A stretch of 64,000 bases of DNA from Anaerolineae bacterium (GTDB lineage: Bacteria > Chloroflexota > Anaerolineae > Fen-1058): positions 748,854 through 812,853 of the forward strand of contig JBGLNJ010000001.1 of assembly GCA_041300525.1 (NCBI GenBank). The letters are read 5' to 3'. Under the pieces are notes generated by a model. That model was not told the origin of the DNA and did not search any database. It worked only from the letters and a program-made list of their open reading frames with translations. Position numbers and translations under genes: made by a program. Position 1 is the first letter of the stretch; each line of letters opens with the position of its first letter. Positions 15,901-59,540 of the stretch are shown one piece after another.

Positions 15901-16708
15901 CGACGCGAGCGACTGCCGAAGTCGAATCGCTTGCGTCGCCGCCAATCGTGAGCGTGCCCGTGACGGCCAGGTATTGCCCGTTCGTGAGTGCGGCAAAGGT
16001 CGCGGTCGGAACGTCGGCGTCCACGGTCATCAGCGTATCGGTCATCACCGAGATCGTTCCCAGCCAGGGCGGAACGTCGTCCATGAACAACTGCGCCAGG
16101 TGCAACTGTGAGTAGGACGAGGCCAGGCCATCGCATTTGGCAAAGTCGGTCGTCGTGCTGCTGCACGCGAGGCTATGGTCGGCAAGGCCCGGCGCGGAAG
16201 TGACGGCCGTAAGATCGTAGCGCGGCGCGGCTGACCCCAGGCCATCCTTGACTCGCCGGGGCGTGCCATCGGCGTTCAACGCGGCATAGCGCACGACGGA
16301 TTGCCAGCAGTCGTTGGTCGCGTTCCAACTCACCACCCATCCGCCCAAGCGCGGCTCGAAAGCGACGGCAGGCACGCCCAATCCATAGTCAGAGCCTTGC
16401 TGGCCGATGGCGCGAGCATTGCCCACCGTGTTGCTCACCACGTCCACGCTGCGCCCCATCACCGATGTGCTGGACTTGTACACGACCATGACCCGGCCCG
16501 TGATGCGATCGGCGGCAACCTGGGTATTAGTAGCAGAACTTGCCAGGGTCCGAAGACTATCGCCGACAGTGTTGCCGTTGCCATCCAGGTAAGCCATTTG
16601 GATGCTGCCCGATGTGTCGTTCTGCCACGTGACCACGTACCGATTGTTGCCTGCCCAGGCCACAGACGGATTGGTGTCGTTGCTCACGCCCCAGTTAGCC
16701 GCGTTCAA
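9962..16708 (-). CDS. Giant extracellular/cell-surface repeat protein (~2,250 aa): N-terminal beta-rich repeats, multiple bacterial Ig-like domains, DUF11 repeats, PKD, MAM-like, PKD, and a C-terminal PPC-like domain. The 5' end is uncertain.
   Basis: Continuous ORF 9962..17368. The upstream ~660 nt overlap secY and the rplO remnant on the opposite strand, so they are unlikely to be coding. Candidate starts: TTG 16708, GTG 16687, ATG 16597. Repeated VD..PP Ig-domain boundaries (LDRTPPAVSF, VDTTPPVAV, VDTQAPVLTF, VDLAPPSPV, VDSAPPSISL, VDVVAPAITV). DUF11-like segment (LTYTFVISNAGPGVATTATLAVNLP). PPC-like C-terminus (YEPDDTW...). Confidence 0.7.
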   Translation of the reverse strand: MNAANWGVSNDTNPSVAWAGNNRYVVTWQNDTSGSIQMAYLDGNGNTVGDSLRTLASSATNTQVAADRITGRVMVVYKSSTSVMGRSVDVVSNTVGNARAIGQQGSDYGLGVPAVAFEPRLGGWVVSWNATNDCWQSVVRYAALNADGTPRRVKDGLGSAAPRYDLTAVTSAPGLADHSLACSSTTTDFAKCDGLASSYSQLHLAQLFMDDVPPWLGTISVMTDTLMTVDADVPTATFAALTNGQYLAVTGTLTIGGDASDSTSAVARVEVSQDGGPWQAATGAESWAYNWNIPLADGAHTLRVRAIDMVGNVGPATLVTVVLDRTPPAVSFALPDNSIVGATRNAAGRWQVAMSGTVNDTGGVGTHSVATLLTPNGSGWQTATLAGATWAVNYVLPAFGSDNQALSSPTGVYTFYARATDRLNNQTAPVPLTLGVDTTPPVAVLTYTGPSSTTITQTLSLSGVVTDPSVVAAGVQRLEIAFTPAGQTPGAWANTTLAQSGEGVTGTTWSHPVPVGLEGAYQINLRGTDTRNNRNDDQATWNRWRGEIDTLAPRAAITVTYRGNGSAAQTVYQGWVEDMNLTTANFQFPCALQAADRQYYDDAWWNQTTSSTPRLYRLTPACIVNGHQAITPTLHACDRYDHCTTVTGTLPSHTPPLASAVLTPTHESVLTTLNPVSLNVGAYAVNSLCTLTVTVNSTFLISTSWPSGTVTDTLWTTSWTPAGEGRYTLLALASDWTGQVQTETQPITISVDTQAPVLTFGYTVVTTTHRVSLGRVVLTGTVTDSVGLEAVQVSTAGGPWDDAAFNYARGEWRYLWYLGAEPDGAPYTVTARASDAANHVTQITRTVTVDLAPPSPVTVTLAYTNGAGVFTTLAPGQTIRDVYTPTVIITWTASSDGAGLGNYLVGWTPSSTSTTGLTSYAPAANRYHEQWIGEAQQRYAQVIAQDIYGNWQWQTVGPIYADVPTTPDYISDLKYHGWMESGCSQIGADREIARAAPSHSSLKDVQQLYLSWDDASQSDASLRFTWVGANWNSDGDLFIYLDTQPGGTTHAYDPYGTGPVITLPAQDGSQLAADYALWVEDENTARLLTWNGSAWISQTIDSALGTTPHWALDTSLRPHPEGYLRPHTDLLVPRAWLGSPTSLKLVALASEETALRVWATMPDKNPLNSPRVINPIGLPFAGSNFTLTQQYEWATLGNGVCPNQGQFAPADLRVSLVASPPGVELGYLEHDLPGVLAPGQYLDANLDGDLDLSLPVDTPSGEPALMGNGQAITYTLIYTNEGVLIAPGARVTVTARGGVQLAGGSPQVFALNNVSGTLNIPATVNAALDGQSAEVDAIVADAVHGAFDWLWVQHDVDTLPPQGSLIELPVAFVNAYTNTVSGKVDDPSGVPTITLEVRNVGTGSTGYLTCLDPMPFDGQWSCLWNIGGAADGTQFDLRVMAADRFGNTSNWTTARRVTVDSAPPSISLSTATLSAFADNLLVPAEAGLSGQVQDERQAGWAQLCASRPGEPEQDCAQYAVRPGVTPAVGDWYASAPIVGTGDGTWQTLYFYGVDSAGNRSPVPLTRTLLVDVVAPAITVATALPGVIQATTNLVLSGTVRDGYGAQSIQIHVSKPDGNVAWITPTLTLNGDTWTFIYDARFDVVGNYMLGILARDHAGNAREAGPFDLTVYESSAVANLSLSQAVSSDPAITGRPLTYTFVISNAGPGVATTATLAVNLPTQVNLIAAPPGCVEAVGALQCDLGNLNANSLTTINVQADVPLTTTGVLVNTAYVESSKVDLDVLNNEPEPLYTFVVQPVTGLTLITSAPTVLGETTVLTATTATGTNVALTWSLGDGATATGPTVTHVYTAVNVYTAIVTATNRVNTLMATAHITTDIPVAWPMLVEGFEGAFPPPSWLRTGRIEDEWWRRDGARSHGGRYCAFYDDLFGLQDGWLVTPRVTPTLVSELAFWQYENYSPLYRKHSLWLSLDSNDPKDGSFFEFRELRPGLEDTWQQVRVALRDYANRPIYLAFRYEGNFSDEWCIDDVRVTSGLVLSHDGPTPLGHATTMTATLPTGSNAIYQWDLGDGQTATDPVVTHTYVAPGDYTVVVTVSNSVSLITDTMIVPVRSLAYLPLVMQNYTPPCPDTYEPDDTWVQAHVIATDGTAQRHTFHQANDADWITFQVTDTNTVYVVETFDLSGVDTVIYLYDSDGVRLLDWNDDAAPGTTASRLTFHPYHIGTFYVRIVNYDPSVSGCGIGYSVRAAARP

Positions 16709-16940
16709 GGCCGGCTCTGAGGTGACGCCGGACGTGTTGGCCGAGGTTGGATTTGTAAAGTCCGCCAAGTTGCCTGTGGTTGTTTTGGGAGGGGGCGAGT
16801 TGCCCCATGCCCTCACGGTCAAAGCGCACCGCTTTTCCAAGTCGGCCCAGCAAAAGATAAAAGCGGCCGGCGGCACAGTCGAGGTGTTGCCGTTCGAGAA
16901 AAAGCGTGGCCACTCCACGAAAGGCAGAAATAACCCATGA
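16674..16940 (+). pseudogene. rplO: Ribosomal protein L15 gene, 3' remnant only (C-terminal ~85 aa); N-terminal Gly/Arg-rich half missing
   Basis: ...VGFVKSAKLPVVVLGGGELPHALTVKAHRFSKSAQQKIKAAGGTVEVL is an L15 C-terminus. Its stop overlaps the secY ATG (ATGA). No reading frame upstream encodes the L15 N-terminus; the giant gene's 5' end lies there on the other strand. Confidence 0.6.
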
Positions 16941-18277
16941 TCCAGGCTGTTCGCAACGCCTTTAATCTGCCGGACCTGCGCCGCAAGATCCTGTACACGT
17001 TCTTGATCATGGCGATCTATCGCCTGGCTTCGCACGTGCCAGTGCCGGGCGTCAACCAGGAAGCGCTGAAGCAGTTGCTCCAGGGTGGGTCGGCGGCCGG
17101 GGGCCTCATCAATCTGCTCGATTTGCTGTCGGGTGGGGCCATCGCCAACTTTAGCGTGTTGGCGATGGGAGTGTATCCCTACATCACGGCCTCGATCATT
17201 GTTCAATTGCTGATACCCATCATCCCGTACCTGGAGAATCTGCAAAAGGAGGGCGAAGCCGGACGGAACAAGATCAACCAATTCACCGTCTATGCGACGA
17301 TCCCGCTCGCGCTTTTGCAGGCCATCGGCCAGATTCGCCTCTTGACGGCCGGCACGGGCGGCGAGCAAGTCCTGCCGAGCTTTGGCTTTACCGGCTCACA
17401 ACTCTTGCCCACGATCACCATTCTAATCACGATGACGGCCGGCACGATGTTCGCCATGTGGCTGGGGCAAATGATTGACGAGCAGGGCATCGGCAACGGC
17501 GTCTCGCTGATTATCTTTGGCGGCATTGTGTCGCGTTTGCCACAAAACATTGGCAGTTTGTTGGTGGATCCTGCCACGCGCTGGGTGTCGTTGACGGCGT
17601 TCATCCTGATCACCGTGTTCACCATTCTGGTGATTGTGTACATGCAGGAAGGCCAGCGGCGCATCCCCGTGCAGTACGGCAAGCGCGTGCGCGGGCGCAA
17701 AGTGTTCGGCGGCGGCAGCACGCACATTCCGCTGCGCATCAACACCGCGGGCATGATCCCGCTGATCTTTGCCCAGTCTATTCTGACGTTCCCGGCGGTT
17801 ATCGCGCAGTTCTTGCCGGGTGCAGGGCAAGTTGGCACGTTTGCGCACACGTTGATCGCCATGTTCAGCGGCGGGCGACGTTCGGCTGCAGGTTTTGGGG
17901 ACTGGACGGCGATTTTTTACTGGACCGTGTATTTCTTGATGGTTGTCGGTTTTACGTACTTTTACACTGACGTGATGATGCAGCAGCAAAACCTGCCGGA
18001 TAACCTGCAAAAGCAAGGCGGGTTTATTCCCGGCATTCGTCCCGGCAAACGGACGGAGGAATACATCAACGGGGTGATGCGCCGGATCACGCTGGTGGGA
18101 TCGTTGCTCCTGGGGTTTGTCGCGGTGCTGCCGTTTCTCGTCAGCCCGATCCTGCCTGGCGCGACCAGCTTTTCGTTCATGAGCACGGGCCTGTTGATCG
18201 TCGTGGGCGTGGTGATTGATACGATGCGCCAGCTTGAAGCGCAGTTACTGATGCGCCACTATGAAGGAATTTTCTAG
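16937..18277 (+). CDS. secY: Preprotein translocase subunit SecY
   Basis: 446 aa, 10-TM SecY topology and motifs (GGLINLLDLLSGGAIANFSVLAMGVYPYITASIIVQLL). Confidence 0.95.
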   Translation: MIQAVRNAFNLPDLRRKILYTFLIMAIYRLASHVPVPGVNQEALKQLLQGGSAAGGLINLLDLLSGGAIANFSVLAMGVYPYITASIIVQLLIPIIPYLENLQKEGEAGRNKINQFTVYATIPLALLQAIGQIRLLTAGTGGEQVLPSFGFTGSQLLPTITILITMTAGTMFAMWLGQMIDEQGIGNGVSLIIFGGIVSRLPQNIGSLLVDPATRWVSLTAFILITVFTILVIVYMQEGQRRIPVQYGKRVRGRKVFGGGSTHIPLRINTAGMIPLIFAQSILTFPAVIAQFLPGAGQVGTFAHTLIAMFSGGRRSAAGFGDWTAIFYWTVYFLMVVGFTYFYTDVMMQQQNLPDNLQKQGGFIPGIRPGKRTEEYINGVMRRITLVGSLLLGFVAVLPFLVSPILPGATSFSFMSTGLLIVVGVVIDTMRQLEAQLLMRHYEGIF

Positions 18278-28676: not shown

Positions 28677-29576
28677 TCAGTATTGAGCACGACTTTTGCA
28701 CCTTAAAAACTGATCCCCATAACATTCAAGCCTAGGCGATTCCGAAACGTTTTCGCCAGCCCGAGGCAATACTCGCCCTACCTCCACTCCGATTCTCATA
28801 GAGTGGGGCAGGAACCCCTTGGTTAGCTGGTAGAGCCTCCAGCCAACCATGATATGCCATATCATCAAGAGCAATCCGGCGGCGGGTATGAAGCAGACAG
28901 CTAACAGCTCGCTATCTACCGTTGGCACAAAGGCAAAAGCAATGCAATAAGCCAAATCAAACGCACTTGCCAGAATTCCCACATAAGCGGTTGCCCGGTT
29001 GAACACAGCGCTCCGCAGCATGACAACTGAGGCAATCATACCGGCAACGGCAATGAAAAGCAAGCTTATATACCCCCCCGTGCCAGGATGAGAGCCAAGA
29101 TCGCTGAAACGATTGATAGCCAGCATCGCCTGCCCGGCTGCCAGCAACATGGTTCTCTGCGCTTCGGTTGTCGCGGCCGCGTATTGATCGCTGAGGGAAA
29201 GCATGGAGAAAGCCATGTTCGAGGCAAAGTAAACCGCTATCCCAAAAAAGCCCAGGGTCGTAGCGATGGCCATGTAGCTTTTATTAGCTCGCTCAAGGAC
29301 AGCATAGAGGGCGAGAAACATCAAGCCCACAAGAGCATAGTTAACAAGGTCAAAGATGTTGAGGTAAGAGAGTCCCAGGAGCCGATTGCTCTGAAGGAGC
29401 GCAAACCAGTTGCTTACAGTGGCAGGGGAGGGATGCTTGCTGAAAAGCCCGATTTCCGCAGCGATGTTCCTTCTGAAGAGTACACCTGCAATAAGGGCAG
29501 CCACTCCGCCGACTCTGTAGAGGCTCTCCCAGCCGGAGTCTAGAGTTTCGGCATTGGCAACTTTCATGATTTCCAT
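28677..29576 (-). CDS. Polytopic membrane protein of unknown function
   Basis: Start at MEIMKVANAE with RBS GGAAAGGAAGA. About 7 hydrophobic segments. The longer ORF to 29792 lacks an RBS. Confidence 0.55.
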   Translation of the reverse strand: MEIMKVANAETLDSGWESLYRVGGVAALIAGVLFRRNIAAEIGLFSKHPSPATVSNWFALLQSNRLLGLSYLNIFDLVNYALVGLMFLALYAVLERANKSYMAIATTLGFFGIAVYFASNMAFSMLSLSDQYAAATTEAQRTMLLAAGQAMLAINRFSDLGSHPGTGGYISLLFIAVAGMIASVVMLRSAVFNRATAYVGILASAFDLAYCIAFAFVPTVDSELLAVCFIPAAGLLLMIWHIMVGWRLYQLTKGFLPHSMRIGVEVGRVLPRAGENVSESPRLECYGDQFLRCKSRAQY

Positions 29577-29892
29577 TCTTCCTTTCCATTTTGTCCGATG
29601 AACGGCTGGCGTCGCCGGCCACCTGGCATTTATTCGGGATACTTGATTGTACTCCCAAAAGGCGGGGGGACACAAGTGGCCCCACACGGTCAGCGGGGTT
29701 GAAGAGACTCGTGGAAAGTACGTTGAGGTGAAACAAGCAGCAAGCGGGAGGCGTTCAAGGGGGTTCGAGTCCGATGGCTCATAGGGGTGCATGTCCGAGC
29801 GGTGGCAGCGTGATATTTGCGTAAAGACCCGGCGCTAGAGTTGGTGCAGCTGGCGATCCCGCGCCGCGTCTACACGCAGACCCTCCCGATGA

Positions 29893-29943
29893 CCGACGGA
29901 GGACGAACGACGAATGACATGGTCGTTCATCCTCCGTCATTCA
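29893..29943. repeat. Inverted heptamer-array hairpin (GGAGGAC GAACGAC GAATGAC ... GTCGTTC ATCCTCC GTCATTC) overlapping the stop codon of the channel gene
   Basis: Read directly from the sequence. Confidence 0.6.
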
Positions 29944-30398
29944 ACATTCCGCTTGCGCAATTCCTCCAAGATCGCATCCAGCCGTTCGATCATCACCTGC
30001 TGCCCCACGTCCGAGGCTGTGGCCGCTCTATGAGGCAGATCGAGCAACTCGTCCGTCAACGAAGGGCCCACGGTCATGGCCAGGGTTGCAATCGCTCGTC
30101 CCGCCTGCGTTTGCGCAAAGATATCGGCATAGCCCACCGAGAGGCACGTGCCGATATAGTACAGCGCATCCACAAACGTCTTGATCTTGGGATTCGCATC
30201 GCGCTCGGCCAGGTAGAACGCCGCCGACGTTCCCAGCAAGAACCCCGCCAGCGATTCCATCGGGTAACGGGTCAGGCGCTCGACGATCTCGGATTCGATC
30301 TCGCCGCGCTTGTCCACGACCCCGCGCCAGGCCTCGACGACTTGCGCGCTGGAAATGCCCGTAAAGGTTTTCAGCATATCAGGAGTGGACTTTATCAC
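29937..30398 (-). CDS. Two-TM pore-loop ion channel (Ion_trans_2 / KcsA-like) with non-canonical filter SVGYAD
   Basis: TM1 LAGFLLGTSAAFYLA, pore helix and filter FVDALYYIGTCLSVGYADIF, TM2 AGRAIATLAMTVGPSL. The GTG start overlaps the pspA stop (GTGA). Confidence 0.5.
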   Translation of the reverse strand: MIKSTPDMLKTFTGISSAQVVEAWRGVVDKRGEIESEIVERLTRYPMESLAGFLLGTSAAFYLAERDANPKIKTFVDALYYIGTCLSVGYADIFAQTQAGRAIATLAMTVGPSLTDELLDLPHRAATASDVGQQVMIERLDAILEELRKRNVE

Positions 30399-30841
30399 GG
30401 CGTTCTTCTCCCAGACTTGTCGCTCTTTGCACGGCGAGCCTCTTGAGCCTTGTCCTGCAACGCGGCTACGGATGCCTTCATCTCGGCCACCACCTGCCGC
30501 TGATGATCGAGCTTTTTCTGCGATTCCTCGGCCACGCGCTCATACGCCATCTTGCGCTTGAGCGCCCGACGCGCCTGCTCTTCATCACCCGCTTTCAACG
30601 ACGCATCGGTCTTGGCGTCCCATTCCGCGCCTGAGGCCCGCGCGGCTTGCACCTGTTTCTCAAGCTGGTGCTGCTGCGCGATAGCCGCTGCGACGGCATC
30701 TCTGGCTTGCGCGATCCCTTCATCCATCTCGGCCAGATAGTGCGCCACAACGTCCTGCGGATCGGCCTCGTCCATCAGCAGGTCGCTCAGATTGACTTGG
30801 AGTAGAGCAGCAATGCGCCGGGATAGCTTTAGGTTTGACAT
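30395..30841 (-). CDS. pspA: PspA/IM30 (Vipp1) family protein, short 148-aa form
   Basis: Coiled-coil with PspA N-terminal signature (LLQVNLSDLLMDEADPQDVVAHYLAEMDEGIAQARDAVA...). Confidence 0.7.
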   Translation of the reverse strand: MSNLKLSRRIAALLQVNLSDLLMDEADPQDVVAHYLAEMDEGIAQARDAVAAAIAQQHQLEKQVQAARASGAEWDAKTDASLKAGDEEQARRALKRKMAYERVAEESQKKLDHQRQVVAEMKASVAALQDKAQEARRAKSDKSGRRTP

Positions 30842-30935
30842 TCGACTTGATGCGAACGACGGACGTTCGATTCCGTCATTCGTCGTTCGTCACGCGAAGC
30901 GTCCCTCTTTAGGGGGGTTCGCCATTCGCCATTCG
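30842..30935. repeat. Heptamer-periodic hairpin repeat (TTCGTCA / GCCATTC units) between flotillin and pspA
   Basis: ...TCCGTCATTCGTCGTTCGTCACGCGAAGCG...GTTCGCCATTCGCCATTCGTCATGAC. Confidence 0.55.
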
Positions 30936-33065
30936 TCATGACTTGGCCGCTGCGGCATAGCGCAGATAGATATCTTCAAAGTTGGCGTCGGCCAGGAAGG
31001 GCAGCAGCGCCAACGCCGCGCGCGCCTGGGCGACGGCGGGCTTGTCGGCCTCGGCGGCCTTGGCTTCCAGTTGATCGAGCACCTGGCTCACGGTCTGCTT
31101 CTTGAGCTTGTTCACGTCCAGCGTGCGATCCACCACGGCCATGAGCTGTGGCATGAGGGTCGCCACCTGCTCCAGCGTCATCCTCTGGCCGGGCTGTTCT
31201 TTCTTGCCGTTGCCCATCACTTTGTCGAGCAACTGGCTGCCCAGTTCCTTGACCTGCGGCGGCACCGCGCCCACCACGTCATTCATCCCTTCGGCAAACG
31301 ACATCAGGCGCAGGATGCTTTCGGCGGCATCGGGCGTGCCATACATCTTGATCTGCATGTTAGCAATCGCCGCGCCGATAGCTTGCGCGCGCGCCACACC
31401 GATCTGAACCTGGGCATCAAGCTGCATGCGCTGCAACTCTAACTTTTGGCTCACGTTGTCGAACGCCGCCAACGCTTCGGCCTTGGCCTTTTGGCCTTCG
31501 GCTTCGGCCAACCCCTTGGCCTTGACCGTCTCGGCTTCGGCCAGACCTTTGGCGCGGATGACCTCGGCCTCGACCTGGGTGGCCTCGGCCTTGGCGCGGA
31601 TCACGTCAGCCTCTGCCGTGCCTTGCAAGCGAGACGCCTCGGCTTTGGCGCGCAAGACTTCGGCTTCGGCCAGACCGATCGCGCTGGAGCGAGCGCGTTC
31701 GGCGTCGGCGAGCATCTTTTCGGCGTCGCTTTCGGCCTGCGCTTGAGTGCGTTTGGTTTCGGCCTGCTTTTGCGCCGCCTCGAACTCGGCCTGGGCGATT
31801 TGCTTGAGCGCAGCCGCTTGCGCTTCGGCATCGCGAACCTTTTTCAGCACCTCGATCTCGACGGCATTCTTGCGGTCAATCATCAAGCGCTGCGCGTCGC
31901 GCTCGGCCTGAATGACCTGGATAGCGGCCTCACGCCTGGCCCTGGCCGTCTCTTCGACGGTCGTGACGTCCTGCGCGGCCTGCTCGCGTTGAGCGGACAC
32001 CAACAAGCGTTCTTTTTCCGCCGCCTCACGCTTTTGCTGCTCGGTGAGCACCGCGATCTGTTTGGTCTGCTCGGTCACTTCGCTGGCCTGGTTGCGCACA
32101 ATTTCGGCCACCTGGTATTCCTGCTTCTTGCGCTCGTCCTGCACCAGGATGGTCTGCTCCATCTCGATCTCGGACAACTTGACCGCGCGCTCTTTGGCGA
32201 TGCGCCCCTGTTCCGCCGATTGCTCCTGCTCATAGATAGACTTGTCGGCGGTGGATTTTTCGACCGCCTGGCGCGTGCGCACCTCGCGGTTTTGCGTGGC
32301 GGTGGCAAAAGCCAGGTCTTGCTCCATGGTCAGCTTTTCTTTAGCCGTGTTAATGTCGCGTTGTTTGATCTCGACTTCGGTCTTGCGCTCGATGTCGTTG
32401 CGCTCGCGCTGCGCTGCCTGAATGACCTGAGCATTGGCGCGGGCCACCTGAGCGCCGAACACGTCGTCGGTGCCGAACGAGCCTTGACGGGCCGCCTTGA
32501 GCGTGAGGATGCTCACGCTTTCCAGCACCAGGCCGTTTTCCTCCAGGTCGCTCTTGACGCGGTTTTGGACTTCCATGATAAACTTTTCGCGTTCCTGGTG
32601 CAGGCTCATCAAGGTAAAGGTGGCGGCCACATCGCGCAGCGCGCCGTCGAGCTTGGCCTCGACCAGCGTCTTGATGGCATTCGCGTCCACGGACTTTAAT
32701 CCAATCGTGCGCGCGGCGTCAATGATGCCTTCCACCGTCGGGCTGACCTTGATGTAAAAAATAGCCTTGATGTCCGCATACTGCGGGTCTTTGGTGAGGA
32801 GCGCGTTCTGCTCGGTGCGCTCGATCTCGATTGCCATCGTGCCCAGGTCTACCCACGTGACCATGTGGATGAACCCGAACACCCACGACCCGCCGTTCAT
32901 CACGACCTTGGGCGGGGCGTCGGGCTTGCGCAAAAATCCGCCCGTGCGCACGAACGCCCGGTTGGCTGGCGCTTTGACGTAGGACTTGGCAATCATCGCA
33001 AAGAACACCAAGACTGCGATGCCGACAAGACAAGAGATGGTGACTGCTAGTAACATGGGATCCAT
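30936..33065 (-). CDS. Flotillin-like protein (SPFH/band-7 domain plus a long Ala/Glu-rich coiled coil), 709 aa
   Basis: N-terminal TM, SPFH domain (...GGSWVFGFIHMVTWVDLGTMAIEIE...), and extended EA-repeat flotillin-type coiled coil. Confidence 0.85.
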   Translation of the reverse strand: MDPMLLAVTISCLVGIAVLVFFAMIAKSYVKAPANRAFVRTGGFLRKPDAPPKVVMNGGSWVFGFIHMVTWVDLGTMAIEIERTEQNALLTKDPQYADIKAIFYIKVSPTVEGIIDAARTIGLKSVDANAIKTLVEAKLDGALRDVAATFTLMSLHQEREKFIMEVQNRVKSDLEENGLVLESVSILTLKAARQGSFGTDDVFGAQVARANAQVIQAAQRERNDIERKTEVEIKQRDINTAKEKLTMEQDLAFATATQNREVRTRQAVEKSTADKSIYEQEQSAEQGRIAKERAVKLSEIEMEQTILVQDERKKQEYQVAEIVRNQASEVTEQTKQIAVLTEQQKREAAEKERLLVSAQREQAAQDVTTVEETARARREAAIQVIQAERDAQRLMIDRKNAVEIEVLKKVRDAEAQAAALKQIAQAEFEAAQKQAETKRTQAQAESDAEKMLADAERARSSAIGLAEAEVLRAKAEASRLQGTAEADVIRAKAEATQVEAEVIRAKGLAEAETVKAKGLAEAEGQKAKAEALAAFDNVSQKLELQRMQLDAQVQIGVARAQAIGAAIANMQIKMYGTPDAAESILRLMSFAEGMNDVVGAVPPQVKELGSQLLDKVMGNGKKEQPGQRMTLEQVATLMPQLMAVVDRTLDVNKLKKQTVSQVLDQLEAKAAEADKPAVAQARAALALLPFLADANFEDIYLRYAAAAKS

Positions 33066-33168
33066 TGTGCGCCTCCTCTATATGATACTTGACGAGTGAA
33101 ATGTGATGCGCGCAGCGCGCCTCACAATCCGCCGGCATGACGACAAACAGCTTGTTCGCCTTGCCGTG

Positions 33169-33498
33169 TTAGCGCCTGGGATGCAGCAGATTCATGCCGG
33201 CGCTGATCAAGGTATTGGCAAGCCCCACGGCAATGTAGAGCAAGACAATCGGCAAACCATAGGCCAGAATCTCTGCGGGCACCGTCAACAGTCCACCTTC
33301 CCAGCCGATGGACAGACGATCCGGGAACAACTGTCGGAAAAAAGCCAACTCTTTGGGGTCAACGAATAGCGAATAGATCTCCAACAACACCCCCAACGCC
33401 GCCCCCAGACCGCTCAGAATCAAAACGTAGCCCATCCCGTTTTTCAGATTCACCGGCTTGTAGAGGGTATCGAATTGACCGCCTGGTTCCTGTATCAT
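33169..33498 (-). CDS. Small two/three-TM membrane protein (operon partner of the NfeD-like gene and flotillin)
   Basis: 109-aa ORF with hydrophobic helices (YVLILSGLGAALGVLLEIYSLF; ILAYGLPIVLLYIAVGLANTLI). Start may be the internal MGYVLIL at 33435. Confidence 0.4.
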   Translation of the reverse strand: MIQEPGGQFDTLYKPVNLKNGMGYVLILSGLGAALGVLLEIYSLFVDPKELAFFRQLFPDRLSIGWEGGLLTVPAEILAYGLPIVLLYIAVGLANTLISAGMNLLHPRR

Positions 33499-33527
33499 GT
33501 CAACCTCAGCCTATCGCCTTTCACGCC

Positions 33528-34355
33528 TCACATCTCCGACGGCACGACGATAAACACCTTCTTGGCCGTGTCGTACTCGACCAGAATCACTTCGGTATCG
33601 CGCGGGATGGCGGGCTTGCCCGGATCAACCACGGCGAACACGGTGATGAGCGTGCCGCCCACATCGCGCAGCTTGACCTGGCCGTACTTTTCGTCCACCT
33701 GCGGGCTGACGACATACCCGCGCCGGCTCACCAGCCGCTTGACCGAGGTGGCCGTGCTGGAAAAGGCCGGCACCGCACGACCGATGAATACCGCCACGCG
33801 CGAAGTCAACAAGAATGCAAGGAACAAGTCCAAAAGTAAAACGACAACCAGCGCCCAACCGGGATAGGGACGGAATACGCCAACCACAGAGGCATTGGCA
33901 ATCCAGCCCAAAATTCCAAACCCGCCCAGCAATACCAGCAGAATCATGGTTACGGGCGCCTGACCCACGCCCAGGAATTGCAGCGCCCCCGCCCACGCGG
34001 GCAGGCTTCCCGCGTCGTGGCTTACGTCGTGGTCCACATCGTGGTCAACATCGTGATCCATATCGTGGCCCAGGTCGGCGTCGTGCTCCACGGCGAGGTC
34101 GTGGTCTACCGCCACATCGTGATCTAGGGCGAGGTCGTGATCCACGGCAAGATCGTGATCTAGAGCGAGGTCATGCTCCAGGCTGACGTCGTGATCCAGG
34201 TCAACGTGAACATCTGCGTCGGCATCGGCATCGTGATCTTGTTCCAGGCCGAGGAACTGTAAAGCCGAAAGACCGAGGAAGGCCAGGAGCGCCAACGTGA
34301 ACGGGATATTGTACCAGGCGGTGGCGAATGTCCACAGGTCAACGAGAGCTTTCAC
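33528..34355 (-). CDS. NfeD-like (YuaF-type) membrane protein with C-terminal OB-fold and an inserted His-Asp hexapeptide repeat tract
   Basis: GTG start after RBS AAGGAAAAAG (VKALVDLWTF...). HD-repeat DHDADADADVHVDLDHDVSLEHDLALDHDLAVDHDLALDHDVAVDHDLAVEHDADLGHDMDHDVDHDVDHDVSHD. C-terminal NfeD OB-fold (GYVVSPQVDEKYGQVKLRDVGGTLITVFAVV...VEYDTAKKVFIVVP). Confidence 0.65.
   Translation of the reverse strand: MKALVDLWTFATAWYNIPFTLALLAFLGLSALQFLGLEQDHDADADADVHVDLDHDVSLEHDLALDHDLAVDHDLALDHDVAVDHDLAVEHDADLGHDMDHDVDHDVDHDVSHDAGSLPAWAGALQFLGVGQAPVTMILLVLLGGFGILGWIANASVVGVFRPYPGWALVVVLLLDLFLAFLLTSRVAVFIGRAVPAFSSTATSVKRLVSRRGYVVSPQVDEKYGQVKLRDVGGTLITVFAVVDPGKPAIPRDTEVILVEYDTAKKVFIVVPSEM
33990..34240 (-). 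repeat. In-frame ~18-nt tandem repeat encoding (D-H-D-[LV]-A-[LV])n
   Basis: DNA periodicity GGCGAGGTCGTGATCCAC / GGCAAGATCGTGATCTAG / AGCGAGGTCATGCTCCAG on the plus strand. Confidence 0.6.
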
Positions 34356-34554
34356 GTTACTTTTTCCTTGCCGTCGGCAAAGCCAGAGGCGCGCGAGAGG
34401 CTCTGCGACGATGCGCGGGTTGCTGCCCATTCAGGAATCTGGTTCGGCCTTGATTCTATCACACGTCTACCCGGGAATCAACTCCGGGAGGCGAACCGAA
34501 GCGGACAGTTGGCTGACACAAACGGAAAGGCCCTGTTGGATTCACGATTTTTCC

Positions 34555-35304
34555 TCACTCGGGCCGGTGACTGCTTTTCTCCGACCGCCGGGACAAGCTC
34601 ACCAACGAGATACCCAGCGCCACCAGCCCGACGACCTGTGCCGCACGCCATCCGCCCGGCAGCAAAAGACTATCCGCGCGAAAAGCTTCCAGGAACACGC
34701 GTTGAGCGGAATACAATGCCAGGAACAATAGCGTCGCCGTGCCAGGCTTTGGATGACGACGCAGCATCACGAGCAACACGAGCAGGGTCGCCAGCATTGC
34801 CAACATCTCATAGATTTGAGTCGGGTGACGCTCCATGTCCCACAACTCGATGGCCCACGGCAGCGTCGAAGGCGTCCCGTAAGCTTCGCCGGAGAACAAA
34901 TTCGACAGCGAGACCGCAGCAAGCAAGAAGGCCGCGCCCGGCGTCAGCGCGTCGAGCCAGCGCGCAGTGAGCAACTTGTTACGCCAGGCATACAGCGCCC
35001 CGACCGACACGCCCACACCCCATCCTCCTGTCGCATCCAGCGTGCTCAAGTTCAGCGAGACAATGCCCAGTGGGTCGCCTGCAAATGCCGTCCAGTGTGT
35101 CAAGACGTACCACACCCGCGCGCCGAGGATGCCGGCAACCGCCGCGTAAAAGCCGGGGTTGTAGACGTCGTCGTCCTTCAGCCCAAAAGTCTTGGCTCCG
35201 CGCGCCGCCACCCACAGCGCCGCCCCAAAGCCAAATATGACGATCAGGCCAGGCAACTGCACCACCACGGGGCCGATGTGTATCACTGGCGCCGGAAAAA
35301 TCAC
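34555..35304 (-). CDS. lgt: Prolipoprotein diacylglyceryl transferase
   Basis: ...APVIHIGPVVVQLPGLIVIFGFG... and HPTQIYEML align to Lgt signatures. Confidence 0.8.
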   Translation of the reverse strand: MIFPAPVIHIGPVVVQLPGLIVIFGFGAALWVAARGAKTFGLKDDDVYNPGFYAAVAGILGARVWYVLTHWTAFAGDPLGIVSLNLSTLDATGGWGVGVSVGALYAWRNKLLTARWLDALTPGAAFLLAAVSLSNLFSGEAYGTPSTLPWAIELWDMERHPTQIYEMLAMLATLLVLLVMLRRHPKPGTATLLFLALYSAQRVFLEAFRADSLLLPGGWRAAQVVGLVALGISLVSLSRRSEKSSHRPE

Positions 35305-35319
35305 GCCGCTGCTCCATCA

Positions 35320-35360
35320 TCAGACGAAGGACGAAAGGCCATCGTTCGTCCTTCGTCATT
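35320..35360. repeat. Inverted heptamer-array hairpin (GACGAAG GACGAAA ... CGTTCGT CCTTCGT CA) between lgt and the tlpA-like gene
   Basis: Read directly from the sequence; it overlaps the tlpA-like stop codon. Confidence 0.55.
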
Positions 35361-35883
35361 TCATCAAGTCCGTGACTTTGCTCTCAATGGCGGCCTTCGT
35401 CAGCGGCCCACCTACAATCATGTCACGGATCGTTCCATCGCGCCCGATAAAGAGCGTCGTCGGCAGGCCCTGCACCCGGTAAAGCGCAAGCGCCTCGCCA
35501 TCCGAATCGAGCGCCACCGGGAAGGTCAATCCGATGCCCGCCACGAATTGGGTCACAACGTCTTGCGGCTCGGCGACGTCTACGCCGATGATCACCAGGC
35601 CCTCGTCACGATGATTCTTGTAGACCTCCTCGAACGCCGGCAACTCGGCGCGGCAAGGCGGGCACCACGTGGCCCAAAAGTTGACGATCACCGGCTTGCC
35701 GATCTGCCGAGAAAGGGTGAACGTTCCGCCGTCGAGCGTGGGAAGAGAAATGTCCGGCGTGGCGCGCCGGGCGCGCTCGCGTGTTGCCAGCGCCCCCGGC
35801 GCACGCGAGGCAATTGTCCACGCCGCGCCTGCGACGAGGATTACCACGATCAATACATTCCACTGAGCACGAAAGAGTTTCAT
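35356..35883 (-). CDS. TlpA/ResA-family thiol:disulfide oxidoreductase (thioredoxin fold, membrane-anchored)
   Basis: Start MKLFRAQWNVLIVVILVAG (signal anchor); WATWCPPCRAELP active site. Confidence 0.8.
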   Translation of the reverse strand: MKLFRAQWNVLIVVILVAGAAWTIASRAPGALATRERARRATPDISLPTLDGGTFTLSRQIGKPVIVNFWATWCPPCRAELPAFEEVYKNHRDEGLVIIGVDVAEPQDVVTQFVAGIGLTFPVALDSDGEALALYRVQGLPTTLFIGRDGTIRDMIVGGPLTKAAIESKVTDLMK

Positions 35884-36147
35884 TTTTCGGATGTGGGAGT
35901 GATAAAGGAATAGGCTTGGCGGTGCCGGTATTTTAGCCCACTTGCAGCGGTTGCGCAACAGGTCGCTTTGCGGGGCAAGTTTCAGTTCTAGTATTTGAGA
36001 GTTGGGGATTATGATGTTATAATGAGATTGGAGACTGTCTGAATTCAGCGAGCGCCGGCTTTTGGCGAACACGCCGCAAATCGGCGTTCCAGTGCCAGCC
36101 GACTGTTGTGTTCCGTCTTTCAGACAAGCTCTCAAGGAGGCAACAGC

Positions 36148-36417
36148 ATGAAGATAGAGTTGGACGACAAGGAACAAAAGGTGTTGAACACGCTGGCTCG
36201 CAGCGGCGTGATGAGCCCCAGCCAGGTATCGGCCGAAACATGGATCCTTCCCGGCGACACGCTGGCAGTGATCAAATCGCTGGCCGACGCAGGGCTGGTG
36301 CAGATGCGCGAAGACGCCGACAGCACCGACGGCAAGCTGGTGGCGCTCACGGCTCAGGCTCGTGACCTTTTAGACATGGGAAACAAGCGGCAAGTGAAAC
36401 TCTTTAGCAAGAGGTGA
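36148..36417 (+). CDS. Small winged-helix/HTH-like protein (89 aa), unknown function
   Basis: RBS AAGGAGG; MKIELDDKEQKVLNTLARSGVMSPSQVSAE... Its stop overlaps the next gene's start. Confidence 0.45.
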   Translation: MKIELDDKEQKVLNTLARSGVMSPSQVSAETWILPGDTLAVIKSLADAGLVQMREDADSTDGKLVALTAQARDLLDMGNKRQVKLFSKR

Positions 36418-36420
36418 TGT

Positions 36421-37479
36421 ATGGCCCCACTCCCCGGCGCGGAAGCCACACCGCCCTCCACCAATGAACCTCGGCGAGGGCCAGGCGGCTGGACAGTTTT
36501 GACTGTCCTGCTGCTCCTGGCCCTCGCCGTTTTTCTCGCCTTCCCCATGCAGACCGTCTCGCTTCAACCGTGGGTACCCGCGCTGCAAGCTCAACTGCGT
36601 ACTGGGGTCGGCCAGGGCTGGCCGTATGTCGCCGTCGCGCTGCTGGGCGCGATTGTCGGTCTGGCTGAGATCGTGTCCACCTTTCCCAACTATCCGCGCG
36701 AGGCGCTCCGCACGCGCTGGGCGCAGAATCTTGTCCTGGTCAACGCCGTTGCCGCCCCGCTGGCCTTGGCGGTCGTGCAGATTTATGCGCCCACGACCAA
36801 CTTGATCCTGACGGTGCTCGGCGTGGGCATCGGCTTTCAGGCCATCATCCGCACCCGCTTTACGCTCGCCAGGCAGATCGGCGGATCGGGCGAAGGCGAC
36901 GTGAGCCTCAACCTGGGTTGGCTGTACGAACAGTTCCAAAACCTGTGCAAGACGCAAATTGACCTGGAGCTGATGAACGGCCGCCGGACAGCGGTGACAC
37001 GCCTGATCGAACGCTATCCGACGCTGGCCGAGCTGCACGACATTGCCGAGTACACCGTCATCGCGCGCGCCACGCTCACGCCCGATGAGGAAAAGGCCAA
37101 GCAGGCCGATTTGGACCGATTGTTCGACCCGAAAGCGCCGGCCAACGTCGCGCGGACCGGCTTGGCCCTGATAATCCTGGAAAACGGCGGGCAGGCTTAC
37201 GTGGACCTGCTCCTCAGCCAACCCGCCGTGCCTGTCAAATCCACCTCGCCTGAGAGCGTCGTCAAAAGCCTGATTGACAGGTACTCGCTCAACGACCTGG
37301 TTGCGCTCGCCCTGCGCCTGATGACGTCGCAGCAGGAACAAAACTGGGTTCAGCAGGCCGCGCAGCCTGCGCCCGGCATGAACGAAGCCAGCCAGAAAGC
37401 CTTCATCGCCCGCTTTTTGGTGGAGCGCATCGGCGCAGAGACCGTGTTAAAAGCCCTGACCGAACCTCCCACAGAATAA
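36421..37479 (+). CDS. Membrane protein of unknown function (4-5 TM N-terminal half plus soluble C-terminal half)
   Basis: 352-aa ORF translationally coupled to the small HTH gene. No recognisable catalytic motif. Confidence 0.45.
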   Translation: MAPLPGAEATPPSTNEPRRGPGGWTVLTVLLLLALAVFLAFPMQTVSLQPWVPALQAQLRTGVGQGWPYVAVALLGAIVGLAEIVSTFPNYPREALRTRWAQNLVLVNAVAAPLALAVVQIYAPTTNLILTVLGVGIGFQAIIRTRFTLARQIGGSGEGDVSLNLGWLYEQFQNLCKTQIDLELMNGRRTAVTRLIERYPTLAELHDIAEYTVIARATLTPDEEKAKQADLDRLFDPKAPANVARTGLALIILENGGQAYVDLLLSQPAVPVKSTSPESVVKSLIDRYSLNDLVALALRLMTSQQEQNWVQQAAQPAPGMNEASQKAFIARFLVERIGAETVLKALTEPPTE

Positions 37480-38817: not shown

Positions 38818-38851
38818 TATTCGTCACTCGTCACTCGACATTCGTCATTCA
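38797..38851. repeat. Heptamer tandem array (CATTCAT CATTCAA TATTCGT CACTCGT CACTCGA CATTCGT CATTCAT) between the acyl-CoA dehydrogenase stop and the PQQ-DH start
   Basis: Read directly from the sequence. The ORF's MNDEW start is encoded by GAATGAT GAATGGA units. Confidence 0.6.
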
Positions 38852-40576
38852 TCAAAACGGGCTGGCCAGAACAACGTCTCTGACTTGCAGCGGCGTTGGA
38901 TCGGCGGCCTGAATCGCCGCGGCCGCGCCTCGCACCTTGGGCAAATGCTCGGCGATGTAGACGTGAGCCATCGCCCGCTTCCTGTCTGAGGCGCGCGCGT
39001 CTCGCAGCAGCAGCCACGAGTTGACCACATACGCCGCCATGTCCATCACGTCGGAAGCGTAATACTCGATCACGGGCGTGTCACACTCTTTCAAGTGATC
39101 GGCGCACCGGTTGAAAAGTGCGGTCGCGTCCATCACCTGATTCTTGAGCGGGGCCAGCTCCAGGCCATAGTCCTGCGCGGCCCAGTCGTTCAACAAGTCG
39201 TCGAGCGCGTGGCCCAACAACTTGCCGATGACGGCGACCACTTGCATTTGGCTGGTGCCCTCATAAATGTTCGTCACGCGAACGTCGCGGTAATGGCGCT
39301 CCACATTAAACTCGCGCATGTAACCGACGCCGCCATGAACTTGCATCGCCTGGTAACAGACGCGGTTGCCCATCTCGGTGGCATAATACTTGGTCAGCGG
39401 CGTCAGGGTTTCGGCCAGCTTGCTGGCCCGCTTGAGGCGCGCTCGATCCGCCGGGTCCGGCTTGGCGCTTTCGGCGATGCGCCGGTCGTAGGCCTTTTCC
39501 AAATCCACCCAGCGCCCGGCTTCGCAAACCAACGCCCGCACCGACTCGATCTCACTCCGCATCGTCAGGAGCATACGAGTCACAGCCGGCAGGTTGCGAA
39601 TGGCCTGATTGAACTGGACACGCTCGTGAGCATAGCGGTGCGCTTCGCGATAGGCGGCTTCGGCAATGCCCAGCGCCTGGGCCGATACCGCCAGCCGCGC
39701 GCCGTTCATCAACCCCATCGCATAACGAATCAGTCCCATGCGCCGCTTGCCGATCAACTGCGCCGGCGTGTTGTTGTACTGGATTTCGCACGTCGGCGAA
39801 GCGTGCAGGCCGACTTTGTTTTCGATGCGGCGGATCTGAACCGTCTCGTCCTTTTCCACCAGGAACAGCGAAAGGCCGCGTGGATCGGTCGTGCCCTCTT
39901 CGCTCCGGGCCAGCACCACCATAATCTCGGCGCAGCCGTTGGTGATGAAGCGCTTGACGCCGTTGATGCGCCACACGCCGGCCGCCTCGTCAAACGTGGC
40001 GCGCGTCTGCACCGATCCCAAATCGGACCCGGCGTCCGGCTCGGTGAGCACCATCGCGCCCGCCACCTCGCCGCGGGCAAAACGAGGCAACACGCGCGCT
40101 TTCATCTCTTCGCTGCCAAACTCGCTGATGGACGAGGCGATCTCTTGCAGCCCGAAAACCGTCATCAGCCCGGCCTCGGCGCGCGAGACGATCTCGACCA
40201 TCATCTGGTAGATCGTCTCCGGCAAGTTCATCCCGCCGTATTCCCACGGCAGCATTATCCCCATCAGCTCGGCCTGCTTGAGCGCCTTGAGCGCGTCTTG
40301 AGTGGCAGCCGAGTAACGCACCTGGCCTGCCTCGAAATGCGCGCCCTCTTCATCCGCTTCCGCCGCGCGCGGAGCGACCACCGTCGCGCAGATTTCGCCG
40401 AGCACTTTTAACAGGATGCCGTAATTATCTTTGGCGTCCTCATAGTGACGCGGCGCGGAGGGATACTTTTCTCGATAGGTGTAACCCTTTTCTCGAATTT
40501 CGACGACCTCGCGCAAGTCGGTCCTATCCAGATAAAACTGAAGGTCAAGGTTATCCAGGAAAAAATTTTCGGCCAT
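38852..40576 (-). CDS. Acyl-CoA dehydrogenase family protein (long, ~570 aa)
   Basis: ACAD N, middle and C-terminal domain motifs (GGMNLPETIYQMMVEI...; YEGTSQMQ). Confidence 0.85.
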   Translation of the reverse strand: MAENFFLDNLDLQFYLDRTDLREVVEIREKGYTYREKYPSAPRHYEDAKDNYGILLKVLGEICATVVAPRAAEADEEGAHFEAGQVRYSAATQDALKALKQAELMGIMLPWEYGGMNLPETIYQMMVEIVSRAEAGLMTVFGLQEIASSISEFGSEEMKARVLPRFARGEVAGAMVLTEPDAGSDLGSVQTRATFDEAAGVWRINGVKRFITNGCAEIMVVLARSEEGTTDPRGLSLFLVEKDETVQIRRIENKVGLHASPTCEIQYNNTPAQLIGKRRMGLIRYAMGLMNGARLAVSAQALGIAEAAYREAHRYAHERVQFNQAIRNLPAVTRMLLTMRSEIESVRALVCEAGRWVDLEKAYDRRIAESAKPDPADRARLKRASKLAETLTPLTKYYATEMGNRVCYQAMQVHGGVGYMREFNVERHYRDVRVTNIYEGTSQMQVVAVIGKLLGHALDDLLNDWAAQDYGLELAPLKNQVMDATALFNRCADHLKECDTPVIEYYASDVMDMAAYVVNSWLLLRDARASDRKRAMAHVYIAEHLPKVRGAAAAIQAADPTPLQVRDVVLASPF

Positions 40577-58318: not shown

Positions 58319-59494
58319 ATGAACGGACGATTCGGACCTTATGGGGGCCAGTTTGTCCCCGAAACACTGATGCCTGTGCTGGCAGAGTTGGAAGAATCGC
58401 TCAATGCGGCGCTGGCCGATCAAGAATTCTGCGCGCAACTGGCCGACCTGGCCGCGCATTACTCGGGCCGGCCCACGCCGCTCTATTTTGCGCGGCGGCT
58501 GACGGAATATTGCGGCGGCGCGAAAATCTATCTCAAGCGTGAAGACCTGGCCCACACCGGCGCGCATAAAATCAACAACGCGCTCGGACAAGGGTTGCTG
58601 GCGCGGCGTATGGGCAAGGCGCGCATCGTGGCGGAAACAGGCGCGGGACAGCACGGCGTCGCGTCGGCGGCAGTGTGCGCGATGCTCGGCCTTCAGTGCG
58701 TCGTCTACATGGGCACGGAAGACATGCGCCGTCAAGCGCCGAATGTGTTTCGCATGAAATTGCTGGGCGCCGAGGTGCGCCCGGTGGATGGCGGCAGCGC
58801 CACACTCAAGGATGCCATCAACGAAGCCATCCGCGATTGGGTGACGAACGTCCGCGACACGCATTACCTGCTCGGCTCCGCGCTCGGCCCGCATCCTTAT
58901 CCGATCATGGTGCGCGAATTTCAATCCGTCATCGGCCACGAGGCGCGCGCGCAAATCCTGGACGCGGAAGGCCGGCTGCCGGATTTGCTCATCGCGTGCG
59001 TCGGCGGCGGGTCGAATGCTATCGGTTTGTTTGATGCTTTCCGCGACGACGACGTCGCCCTGCTCGGCGTCGAGGCGGGCGGATTGGGGATTGCCTCAGG
59101 CCAGCACGCGGCGCGGTTTGCCGAGGCGCGGCCTGGCGTGTTGCAGGGGACGTACACCTACGTCTTGCAAGACGACGACGGTCAGATTCGCGGCACGCAC
59201 TCGGTTTCGGCCGGGTTGGACTATGCCGCCGTCGGCCCGGAGCACGCTTACTTGCGCGACACCGAGCGCTCGGGTTACACCTATGCCACCGACGATGAGG
59301 CGCTCAACGCGTTCGCCAAGCTGTCGCAGATCGAAGGCATCATCCCTGCGCTCGAATCGGCGCATGCAGTGGCGGAGACGATCAAGCGAGCGCCTATGAT
59401 GAAGCGCGACCAGATTATCCTGGTGAATTTATCGGGGCGCGGCGACAAGGACTTGCAGACCGTTATGGATGCTGGAATGGCGAATGACGAATGA
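58319..59494 (+). CDS. trpB: Tryptophan synthase beta subunit
   Basis: [18 protein letters not shown]...; PLP-binding [10 protein letters not shown]-terminal MANDE* is encoded by a heptamer repeat. Confidence 0.9.
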
Positions 59495-59540
59495 CGAAGG
59501 CATAGTTCATCTTTCGTCGTTCGTCCTTCGTCAGTCTTGA
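59474..59540. repeat. Inverted heptamer-array hairpin (GAATGGC GAATGAC GAATGAC GAAGG ... CTTTCGTCGTTCGTCCTTCGTC) spanning the trpB stop
   Basis: Read directly from the sequence; the TGA stop lies within the GAATGAC unit. Confidence 0.6.

Follow-up and report, generated by a model that had tools for sequence, protein, structure and literature searches.

Comparison with described operons

Flotillin genes that are paired with a gene for a YqiJ- or YuaF-type membrane protein have been described as the operon type YqiJ-YqiK/YuaF-FloT (SPFH2/NfeD2) by Hinderhofer et al. (PMC2636767). Here we analyse a locus of this type in an Anaerolineae bacterium (Chloroflexota). It is located in a stretch of 64,000 nucleotides (nt), positions 748,854 to 812,853 of contig JBGLNJ010000001.1, which we call the window. 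Five consecutive co-directional open reading frames (ORFs) lie on the minus strand of the window at 29937–34430, as an initial annotation had placed them. In gene order, they encode a YqiJ/NfeD-like protein, a membrane protein of 109 amino acids (aa), a flotillin, a short PspA/IM30 protein and a small pore-loop protein with a predicted KcsA fold, in the following called the channel. The ORF, Pfam and sequence checks agree with the initial annotation on the five gene identities, on the co-directional order and on the overlap GTGA at 30395–30398, where the stop codon of pspA and the GTG start of the channel gene share 4 nt. The spacers between the first four genes are 29, 103 and 94 nt long.

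As in the window, yqiJ-yqiK of E. coli and yuaF-floT of B. subtilis encode a YqiJ-type protein with three transmembrane (TM) helices directly 5' of a YqiK-type flotillin. However, yqiJK of E. coli is followed by sibD/ibsD and not by a channel gene or pspA. Furthermore, the flotillin has 709 aa in the window compared to 553 aa in E. coli, and the loop between TM1 and TM2 comprises about 75 acidic or His residues in the window, whereas it has about 10 residues in E. coli YqiJ.

A linkage of PspA with Band-7/flotillin and YqiJ/YuaF proteins, in which CesT/Tir and AAA+ proteins also take part, has been described (Ravi et al. 2024, PMC11237479), and PspA-Band7/FloT-NfeD has been reported in Acidobacteriota (Popp et al. 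2022, PMC9239133). The operons of Ravi et al. centre on a CesT/Tir-PspA dyad, often with an AAA+ ATPase, whereas the operon analysed here has neither the dyad nor the ATPase. Unlike in the published PspA-Band-7-YqiJ operons, the PspA of the window is truncated to 148 aa. Neither of the two papers mentions a pore-loop channel in this context. A PspA-polyamine operon with a ligand-gated K+ channel is also known (PMC11237479) and, like the operon analysed here, brings PspA and a K+ channel gene into one conserved neighbourhood. That channel, however, has an intracellular ligand-sensing domain, its operon includes polyamine genes and CesT/Tir, and no flotillin-YqiJ pair lies beside it. In B. subtilis, PspA needs a genetically linked SPFH protein for its recruitment to the membrane (PMC8581546; bioRxiv 10.64898/2026.02.06.704340). 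The B. subtilis operon pspA-ydjGHI (samGHI) differs from the operon analysed here in its gene order and has neither NfeD nor a channel; its YdjI is a soluble/short SPFH protein that is recruited by YdjG/H. Lastly, FloA-NfeD has been found to hold client membrane proteins (PMC11222466).

Full-text searches that combined flotillin, NfeD or SPFH with potassium or ion channel in prokaryotic gene neighbourhoods retrieved no description of a flotillin-linked pore-loop channel. The channel partner is apparently an undescribed element, whereas the linkage of PspA, flotillin and YqiJ has already been published. The initial annotation had regarded PspA and a channel within one NfeD/flotillin operon as a non-textbook arrangement. 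This stands for the channel and does not stand for PspA (PMC11237479, PMC9239133, PMC8581546). With the channel, an operon type that was already known gains a new conserved member, its third (or fourth). SPFH scaffolds with a dedicated membrane-protein client are known from stomatin-ASIC, MEC-2-MEC-4, podocin-TRPC6 and HflK/C-FtsH. These animal pairs and HflK/C-FtsH involve unrelated channels or a protease and are not operon-encoded, unlike the putative pair of flotillin and channel described here.

Conservation of the gene order

A channel homologue is present at each of the 99 loci that we compared (72 clusters at 90% identity); these loci come from a metagenome scan with the family alignment, where we used the 80 best matches to the window channel, and from other loci. 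A locus was considered informative if the channel homologue had at least 1.5 kb of upstream sequence, which left 40 loci. The flotillin gene is located 5' of the channel gene in 36 of these 40, a fraction that describes the channel's own subfamily and not small Ion_trans_2 proteins at large, and that is inflated by our choice of loci by similarity. Within the 36 linked loci, PspA lies between flotillin and channel in 17 and is missing from this position in 19 (14 and 14 clusters at 90% identity). The yqiJ-like gene is always immediately 5' of the flotillin gene. In 24 loci, the stop of PspA and the start of the channel overlap by 4 nt, which suggests translational coupling of the two genes. 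One locus (L012) shares all five genes with the window.

The gene order is retained although the surroundings change. Starting from the channel, we found homologues that follow NfeD-flotillin at loci with flanks unrelated to those of the window, for example Amidase_2 ... sortase-MurJ and HrcA-GrpE ... FabH. Starting from the flotillin, we obtained six Chloroflexota genomes (Anaerolineae, Thermoflexales and Caldilineaceae), five of which have NfeD-flotillin-channel; a short PspA lies between flotillin and channel in two of these five. A third group of loci, from Polyangiaceae/Polyangiales (Myxococcota), encodes a 600-aa flotillin that is 31% identical to that of the window. Two loci from metagenome-assembled genomes (MAGs) of Polyangiaceae, picked from the flotillin side, both have the order YqiJ_N-Band_7/Flot-Ion_trans_2. 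In these loci, the flotillin gene either overlaps the channel gene or is separated from it by 4 nt, and no PspA is adjacent.

The same gene order occurs in dozens of independent loci with differing flanks, far more than chance would explain. A triad, YqiJ-flotillin-channel, forms the conserved core and is present in Chloroflexota and Polyangiaceae. PspA occurs in some of the lineages only; in many loci of the Anaerolineae type, it is situated between flotillin and channel. The initial annotation had treated all five genes as the unit and had named missing synteny in related genomes as evidence against it. Synteny was found, and it supports the triad, whereas PspA belongs to the unit in some lineages only and the 109-aa gene in the window and two further loci only. 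The identity matrices of flotillin and channel are correlated (r 0.81; Mantel test, 0 of 2000 permutations), which fits long-term co-inheritance of the two genes but is equally expected from shared vertical descent alone.

A first impression from tblastn, that PspA is restricted to the nearest relatives of the window, was rejected as a sensitivity artefact, because distant loci hold PspA_IM30 ORFs. These distant genes were identified by inspecting ORFs and by searches with Pfam and a custom hidden Markov model. At loci whose channel is 40–53% identical to that of the window, a gap of 0.7–1.4 kb holds a coiled-coil ORF of 156–218 aa. Seven of the nine distant intervening ORFs tested match PspA_IM30, three of them over the gathering threshold (up to 52 bits, profile positions 3–188), and the Pfam annotation of one such locus (L100) agrees. 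Five loci have a second PspA directly 3' of the channel with 54–68 bits (L054, 566–1243; L058, 2042–2842; L077, 1788–2507; L092, 563–1047; L095, 872–1498). These downstream copies are canonical and full-length where the contig allows, with L092 and L095 reaching the contig end. In a distant Anaerolineae-type group, PspA paralogues are thus located on both sides of the channel, and the upstream copy, of about 190 aa, has diverged. At another locus (L087, 3906–4366), flotillin is separated from the PspA-like gene by two inserted ORFs of 80 and 72 aa, which by eye resemble a toxin-antitoxin pair of the HicB/HicA type.

The 109-aa protein (33169–33498, minus strand) has two hydrophobic segments and no Pfam or NCBIfam family. 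Its gene was found only in the window, L012 and L022 and is absent from every other locus. Compared to L012, it has 29 nt differences, distributed 6/2/21 over the three codon positions, that cause 6 aa changes; the protein in L022 is 76% identical. Judged from these substitutions, the ORF is a real gene under purifying selection and a clade-specific accessory.

The YqiJ-like protein and the flotillin

The first gene (33528–34430, minus strand) encodes a YqiJ/NfeD2-type protein of 300 aa that matches Pfam YqiJ_N (E 9.8e-8, 32.6 bits, cut-off 23) and has no match to Pfam NfeD. Its true start is probably the GTG at 34355, resulting in 275 aa, since homologues begin at the equivalent position in the alignment. 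In the part that reaches from TM2 to the C-terminal domain, identity to E. coli YqiJ is 22% (pairwise E 3e-7), and the C-terminal regions of the two proteins align. Three TM helices are predicted, with an acidic His/Asp loop between TM1 and TM2, as is a C-terminal domain rich in beta strands. A single-sequence AlphaFold2 model contains three helices and five strands; this model is poor, with a predicted local distance difference test score (pLDDT) below 50 in the C-terminal part. A family-profile search of PDB sequences, aimed at an OB fold in this protein, returned chance matches only.

The His/Asp loop is a low-complexity (DHDx)n tract encoded by degenerate tandem repeats at 34014–34238 (minus strand), for which Tandem Repeats Finder reports periods of 12, 18 and 36 nt at 34027–34233. 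The tract had been highlighted as unusual, a view that the comparison with homologues does not bear out. All YqiJ-like homologues have an acidic D-x-D-x loop of about 24–80 residues that ranges from His-rich to His-free, and in some it is a pure DADADLDAD tract. In E. coli YqiJ, only a remnant of 10 residues is left (ALDAHLDHYD). By these alignments, the acidic loop is a trait of the YqiJ-like family and only the enrichment in His is lineage-specific. The loop is predicted to be cytoplasmic, based on the positive-inside rule and on the cytoplasmic C-terminal domains of NfeD proteins. Its length differs among close relatives, for example by 18 nt between the window and L012, and slippage-driven variation would be consistent with this.

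The third gene (30936–33065, minus strand) encodes a YqiK-type flotillin of 709 aa, consisting of a hydrophobic N-terminal membrane anchor, an SPFH/Band_7 domain (Band_7 at residues 33–194, E 6e-17), a long Ala/Glu-rich coiled coil and a C-terminal domain. Alignment with E. coli YqiK gives 34% identity over 453 aa (residues 4–454). The FloT model matches with E 1e-11, which is under its curated cut-off. The coiled coil aligns with YqiK; Pfam Flot (PF15975) is not reported for the window protein, and Polyangiaceae homologues carry it. The SPFH domain furthermore matches chains of human flotillin-2 (9bq2 and 9l3g, E 1e-5). Because of the identity to YqiK (34%) and to YqiJ (22%), we assign the first protein and the flotillin to the YqiJ/YqiK (SPFH2/NfeD2) pairs. 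In a Thermoflexales MAG (L002, 3816–4403), an extra partial SPFH-only copy, 60% identical to residues 1–194 of the flotillin, lies directly before the full-length gene. A partial duplication could account for this copy, as could an error of assembly or an artefactual frameshift.

The short PspA and the channel

The fourth gene (30395–30841, minus strand) encodes a truncated PspA/IM30 protein (ESCRT-III superfamily) of 148 aa, which matches PspA_IM30 with E 1.6e-17 and 64.3 bits (cut-off 33.9) over profile positions 5–135 of 220. It aligns without gaps to residues 5–138 of Vipp1 (6zvr) and to residues 5–135 of the crystallised E. coli PspA(1-144) fragment (4whe). The protein thus consists of the N-terminal helix followed by the alpha1-alpha3 hairpin; it stops at residue 148, which corresponds to about residue 140 of Vipp1/PspA, and the region equivalent to alpha4 and alpha5 is missing. 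Its close family contains just 12 clusters, each of 117–163 aa. From these alignments, we classify it as a truncated, non-canonical member of the family. In a version attributed to NCBI (P0125), the protein has 126 aa and starts at Met23. The 148-aa form is more likely to be the correct one, as the 22 residues before this Met are conserved in homologues and align with the beginning of the PspA profile.

The last gene (29937–30398, minus strand) encodes a two-TM pore-loop protein of 153 aa with a predicted KcsA fold (Ion_trans_2, E 7e-9, 35.8 bits, cut-off 22.5). In the AlphaFold2 model (pLDDT 89), three short N-terminal helices, predicted to be cytoplasmic, are followed by M1 (residues 46–65), the pore helix (75–86), M2 (98–119) and a long C-terminal helix. 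The best Foldseek matches in the PDB include KcsA (probability 1.00, TM-score 0.70 on the target, 96 columns). Compared to KcsA and the two-TM prokaryotic K+ channels, the predicted M1-pore helix-filter-M2 fold superposes at 24–30% identity, and the C-terminal helix is as in full-length KcsA. The family differs from KcsA in the conserved N-terminal cytoplasmic segment of three helices, in the motifs AE(K/R)xxNPK and T..GK, in its linkage to flotillin and in the filter, which is TVGYGD in KcsA and SVGY-[A/S/C/D/H/G]-[D/N] in the family.

In the window channel, the selectivity filter is S87-V-G-Y-A-D92, encoded by TCG GTG GGC TAT GCC GAT at 30123–30140 (minus strand). It departs from the signature T/S-V-G-Y/F-G, since the last Gly is replaced by Ala. 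This GYAD filter had also been regarded as unusual. We compared it with the family, for which an exhaustive search of 1.84 billion cluster representatives (clusters at 50% identity) gave 325 proteins with E<=0.001; for 162 clusters, E is <1e-10. Nearly all family members have 100–200 aa, and the 260 close homologues all have about 150 aa. Family motifs are F-Y-x-A-E-(K/R)-x-x-N-P-K after M1, D-A-x-x-Y in the pore helix, S-V-G-Y, T-x-x-G-K, and G-P in M2. The S, V, G and Y of the filter are invariant or nearly so, whereas the position after GY is occupied by Ala, Ser, Cys, Asp, His, Thr or Gly. As GYG occurs in only 12 of 149 representatives, the GYAD filter is a trait of the family, in which a residue other than Gly after GY is the rule. 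The search thus defines a sizeable uncharacterised family of pore-loop proteins of about 150 aa, whose GYG-breaking filter bears on the minimal requirements for K+ selectivity. Candidates for natural fusions of PspA and channel were rejected: the longer homologues P0134, P0145, P0151, P0152, P0156 and P0272 carry Ion_trans_2 only, and P0179 is an unrelated fn3/Ig repeat protein.

Proposed mechanism and alternatives

The operon bears on what bacterial flotillins and their NfeD partners act on and on how PspA/IM30 proteins are targeted outside proteobacteria. It names one small membrane protein as a candidate client, the KcsA-like pore, and so provides a concrete hypothesis that needs only three to five proteins. 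Two questions follow: does an SPFH scaffold sequester, assemble or gate an ion channel, and does an ESCRT-III-like protein link this to membrane stress? We are confident that the genes form one selected functional module. Our preferred reading, a composite mechanism in which a conserved membrane module couples scaffold, pore and PspA, has in our estimate a probability of roughly 0.55.

According to this reading, the genes would be expressed jointly from a promoter 5' of the first gene. A sigma-70-like candidate, TTGATT-17-TAGAAT with a TG extension, is located just 5' of this gene (34453–34481, minus strand); it is a consensus match only, and with 2 such matches in the region compared to 1.2 expected it is weak evidence. 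A repeat hairpin follows the flotillin gene, and the dose of the two distal genes may be lower as a result. Flotillin and YqiJ would build an oligomeric SPFH scaffold at the cytoplasmic membrane face, as homology to YqiK/YqiJ, FloA-NfeD and flotillin-2 suggests. The pore protein, presumably a tetramer, would be the scaffold's own client or effector, to which the adjacency kept in two phyla points. Precedents for such clients are FtsH for HflK/C and ion channels for stomatin, MEC-2 and podocin. The PspA hairpin protein would be made in step with the channel and could dock on the channel's conserved cytoplasmic helices or on flotillin, and such docking would link cation flux through the pore with the membrane's condition under envelope stress. 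We infer this coupling from the 4-nt overlap in 24 loci together with the SPFH-dependent recruitment of PspA in B. subtilis. More speculatively, cation binding or pH sensing may be a function of the polyacidic, His-rich loop in the YqiJ-like protein.

A more specific version of the preferred reading is tentative, and we consider it less likely than not. In this version, flotillin/NfeD has a dedicated operon-encoded channel client and PspA of the Anaerolineae acts as a cytoplasmic gate or coupler, such that membrane damage or loss of the proton-motive force leads to controlled cation flux via the SVGY-x-D/N mini-channel. If true, this would be the first prokaryotic counterpart of the SPFH-regulated ion channels of animals.

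Several observations weigh against the coupling of scaffold, pore and PspA, in addition to the inflated linked fraction and the vertical descent that would equally explain the matrix correlation. No co-directional flotillin is found upstream of the channel in four of the 40 informative loci: in L015, L043 and L098 the channel homologue is unlinked to flotillin, and in L075 only a convergent flotillin lies next door. The channel family is therefore not obligately flotillin-dependent. At a flotillin locus of Caldilinea (L005), which is the sixth of the genomes found from the flotillin, an unrelated gene and no channel follows flotillin. PspA is missing from half of the linked loci and is therefore not essential to the core. 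The alpha4 and alpha5 helices serve polymer contacts in PspA/Vipp1, and as the short PspA is devoid of them, it is doubtful that it forms classical membrane-sealing polymers. The outermost filter Gly of KcsA is normally in a left-handed backbone conformation, so that selectivity and conduction are not predictable from the sequence; given the non-GYG filter, K+ selectivity, or any conduction, of the predicted channel is uncertain. Lastly, terminators of this organism are not well modelled, and transcription could be terminated or attenuated at the hairpins that separate flotillin from pspA.

The replaced and, across the family, highly variable second Gly of GYG would also fit a pore protein that conducts no ions and serves as an anchor or sensor that recruits PspA, comparable to PspB/C, LiaI or YdjG/H, while flotillin organises the platform and repair proceeds without ion flux. 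The probable translational coupling of PspA to the pore protein and the conservation of the N-terminal cytoplasmic helices and the C-terminal helix agree with such a role, and small membrane anchors are usual in PspA systems (PMC11237479, PMC8581546). However, the pore helix, S-V-G-Y and the Gly/Pro of M2 are invariant or almost so over 162 clusters, which would be needless for a mere anchor, and the predicted fold superposes on KcsA. Furthermore, the channel occurs without an adjacent PspA in half of the linked loci and in all Polyangiaceae ones. We thus consider a pure anchor unlikely.

Slightly less probable still is an arrangement of two adjacent transcription units, in which nfeD-(109 aa)-flotillin is ended by a hairpin in the spacer and pspA-channel has its own promoter, with independent or only loosely related functions. 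The spacer of 94 nt after flotillin indeed contains two adjacent stable hairpins with ACGAAYG heptamers (30850–30929, minus strand; folding free energy −35.9 kcal/mol, z −1.9), pspA has no clear Shine-Dalgarno sequence, and a hairpin recurs at this position in relatives, there made of other, genome-specific heptamers. A second hairpin with an 18-bp stem and the same heptamers spans the channel stop codon (29894–29939, minus strand; −45.9 kcal/mol, z −4.8; 0 of 200 shuffles fold as well) and is likely a transcript 3' end or stabiliser. Yet the stems in the spacer have no U-tract, as is also the case at the channel stop codon. A terminator scan found neither hairpin terminator-like and detected no terminator- or promoter-like site in the flotillin/pspA spacer; its 6 matches, compared to 5.0 expected, are all inside coding sequence or outside the operon, with none credible in the spacers. 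In addition, the spacer hairpin belongs to a dispersed repeat that is seen at many gene ends, and flotillin and channel genes of the Polyangiaceae type overlap or are nearly contiguous (4 nt). The adjacency kept in two phyla despite rearranged flanks argues for selection on the linkage even if transcription is partly attenuated.

The wide distribution of the triad without PspA could instead point to flotillin/NfeD as an ATP-independent chaperone that assembles or stabilises a housekeeping K+ channel for osmotic or K+ homeostasis, with no role in envelope stress and with PspA as a later add-on of few lineages. FloA-NfeD does stabilise unfolded membrane proteins (PMC11222466). However, many Anaerolineae-type loci have PspA paralogues beside the channel, in some cases on both sides, and the channel has no RCK or ligand-sensing domain of the kind typical of homeostatic K+ channels, which makes this explanation improbable. 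A role in anti-phage abortive infection, with a pore that collapses the membrane potential, is rejected as highly improbable: small membrane pores and membrane-stress proteins do occur in some defence systems, but no PADLOC model matched beyond a coiled-coil noise match to LmuB (E 7e-4), the neighbours are housekeeping genes (lgt, thioredoxin-like), and there are no signs of a mobile element or defence island.

Repeats and neighbouring genes

The heptamer ACGAA[C/T/G]G has 13 matches in the window compared to 0.7 expected, always near gene ends. It forms a dispersed intergenic palindromic repeat (19986, 29896–29918, 30875–30936, 35324–35356, 38830–38852, 59480–59531 and 62729), with tandem heptamers, strong hairpins and no U-tract. 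These hairpins look like repetitive extragenic palindromic (REP) or short tandemly repeated repetitive (STRR) elements, similar to the STRR of cyanobacteria. Possible effects are a more stable upstream message or attenuated read-through. Hairpins are also located in spacers after flotillin or channel genes of L001, L007, L022, L030 and L037, where each genome has its own heptamer, e.g. GTAATGC/CATTACG, CGTGGTG/CGCACCA or AAACGTC/GACGTTT. This suggests rapidly evolving, genome-specific families of heptamer palindromes. An Rfam scan of 29500–35500 detected no RNA family.

The operon is flanked on its 5' side by lgt (34555–35304) and on its 3' side by a gene for a DUF4386 membrane protein (28677–29792), both on the same strand; a thioredoxin-like housekeeping gene is also among its neighbours. 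No further PspA, flotillin or channel gene is present elsewhere in the window. An ORF of 2468 aa (9962–17368, minus strand) with PKD, bacterial Ig-like (Big_3_3, Big_13) and DUF11 domains probably encodes a giant adhesin or surface protein. Two ORFs of 103 and 352 aa without a Pfam family are located at 36106–37479 on the plus strand, a few kb upstream of the operon. The same two ORFs lie directly 3' of the channel on the opposite strand in L020 (808–2161), and local gene order has thus been rearranged between close relatives.

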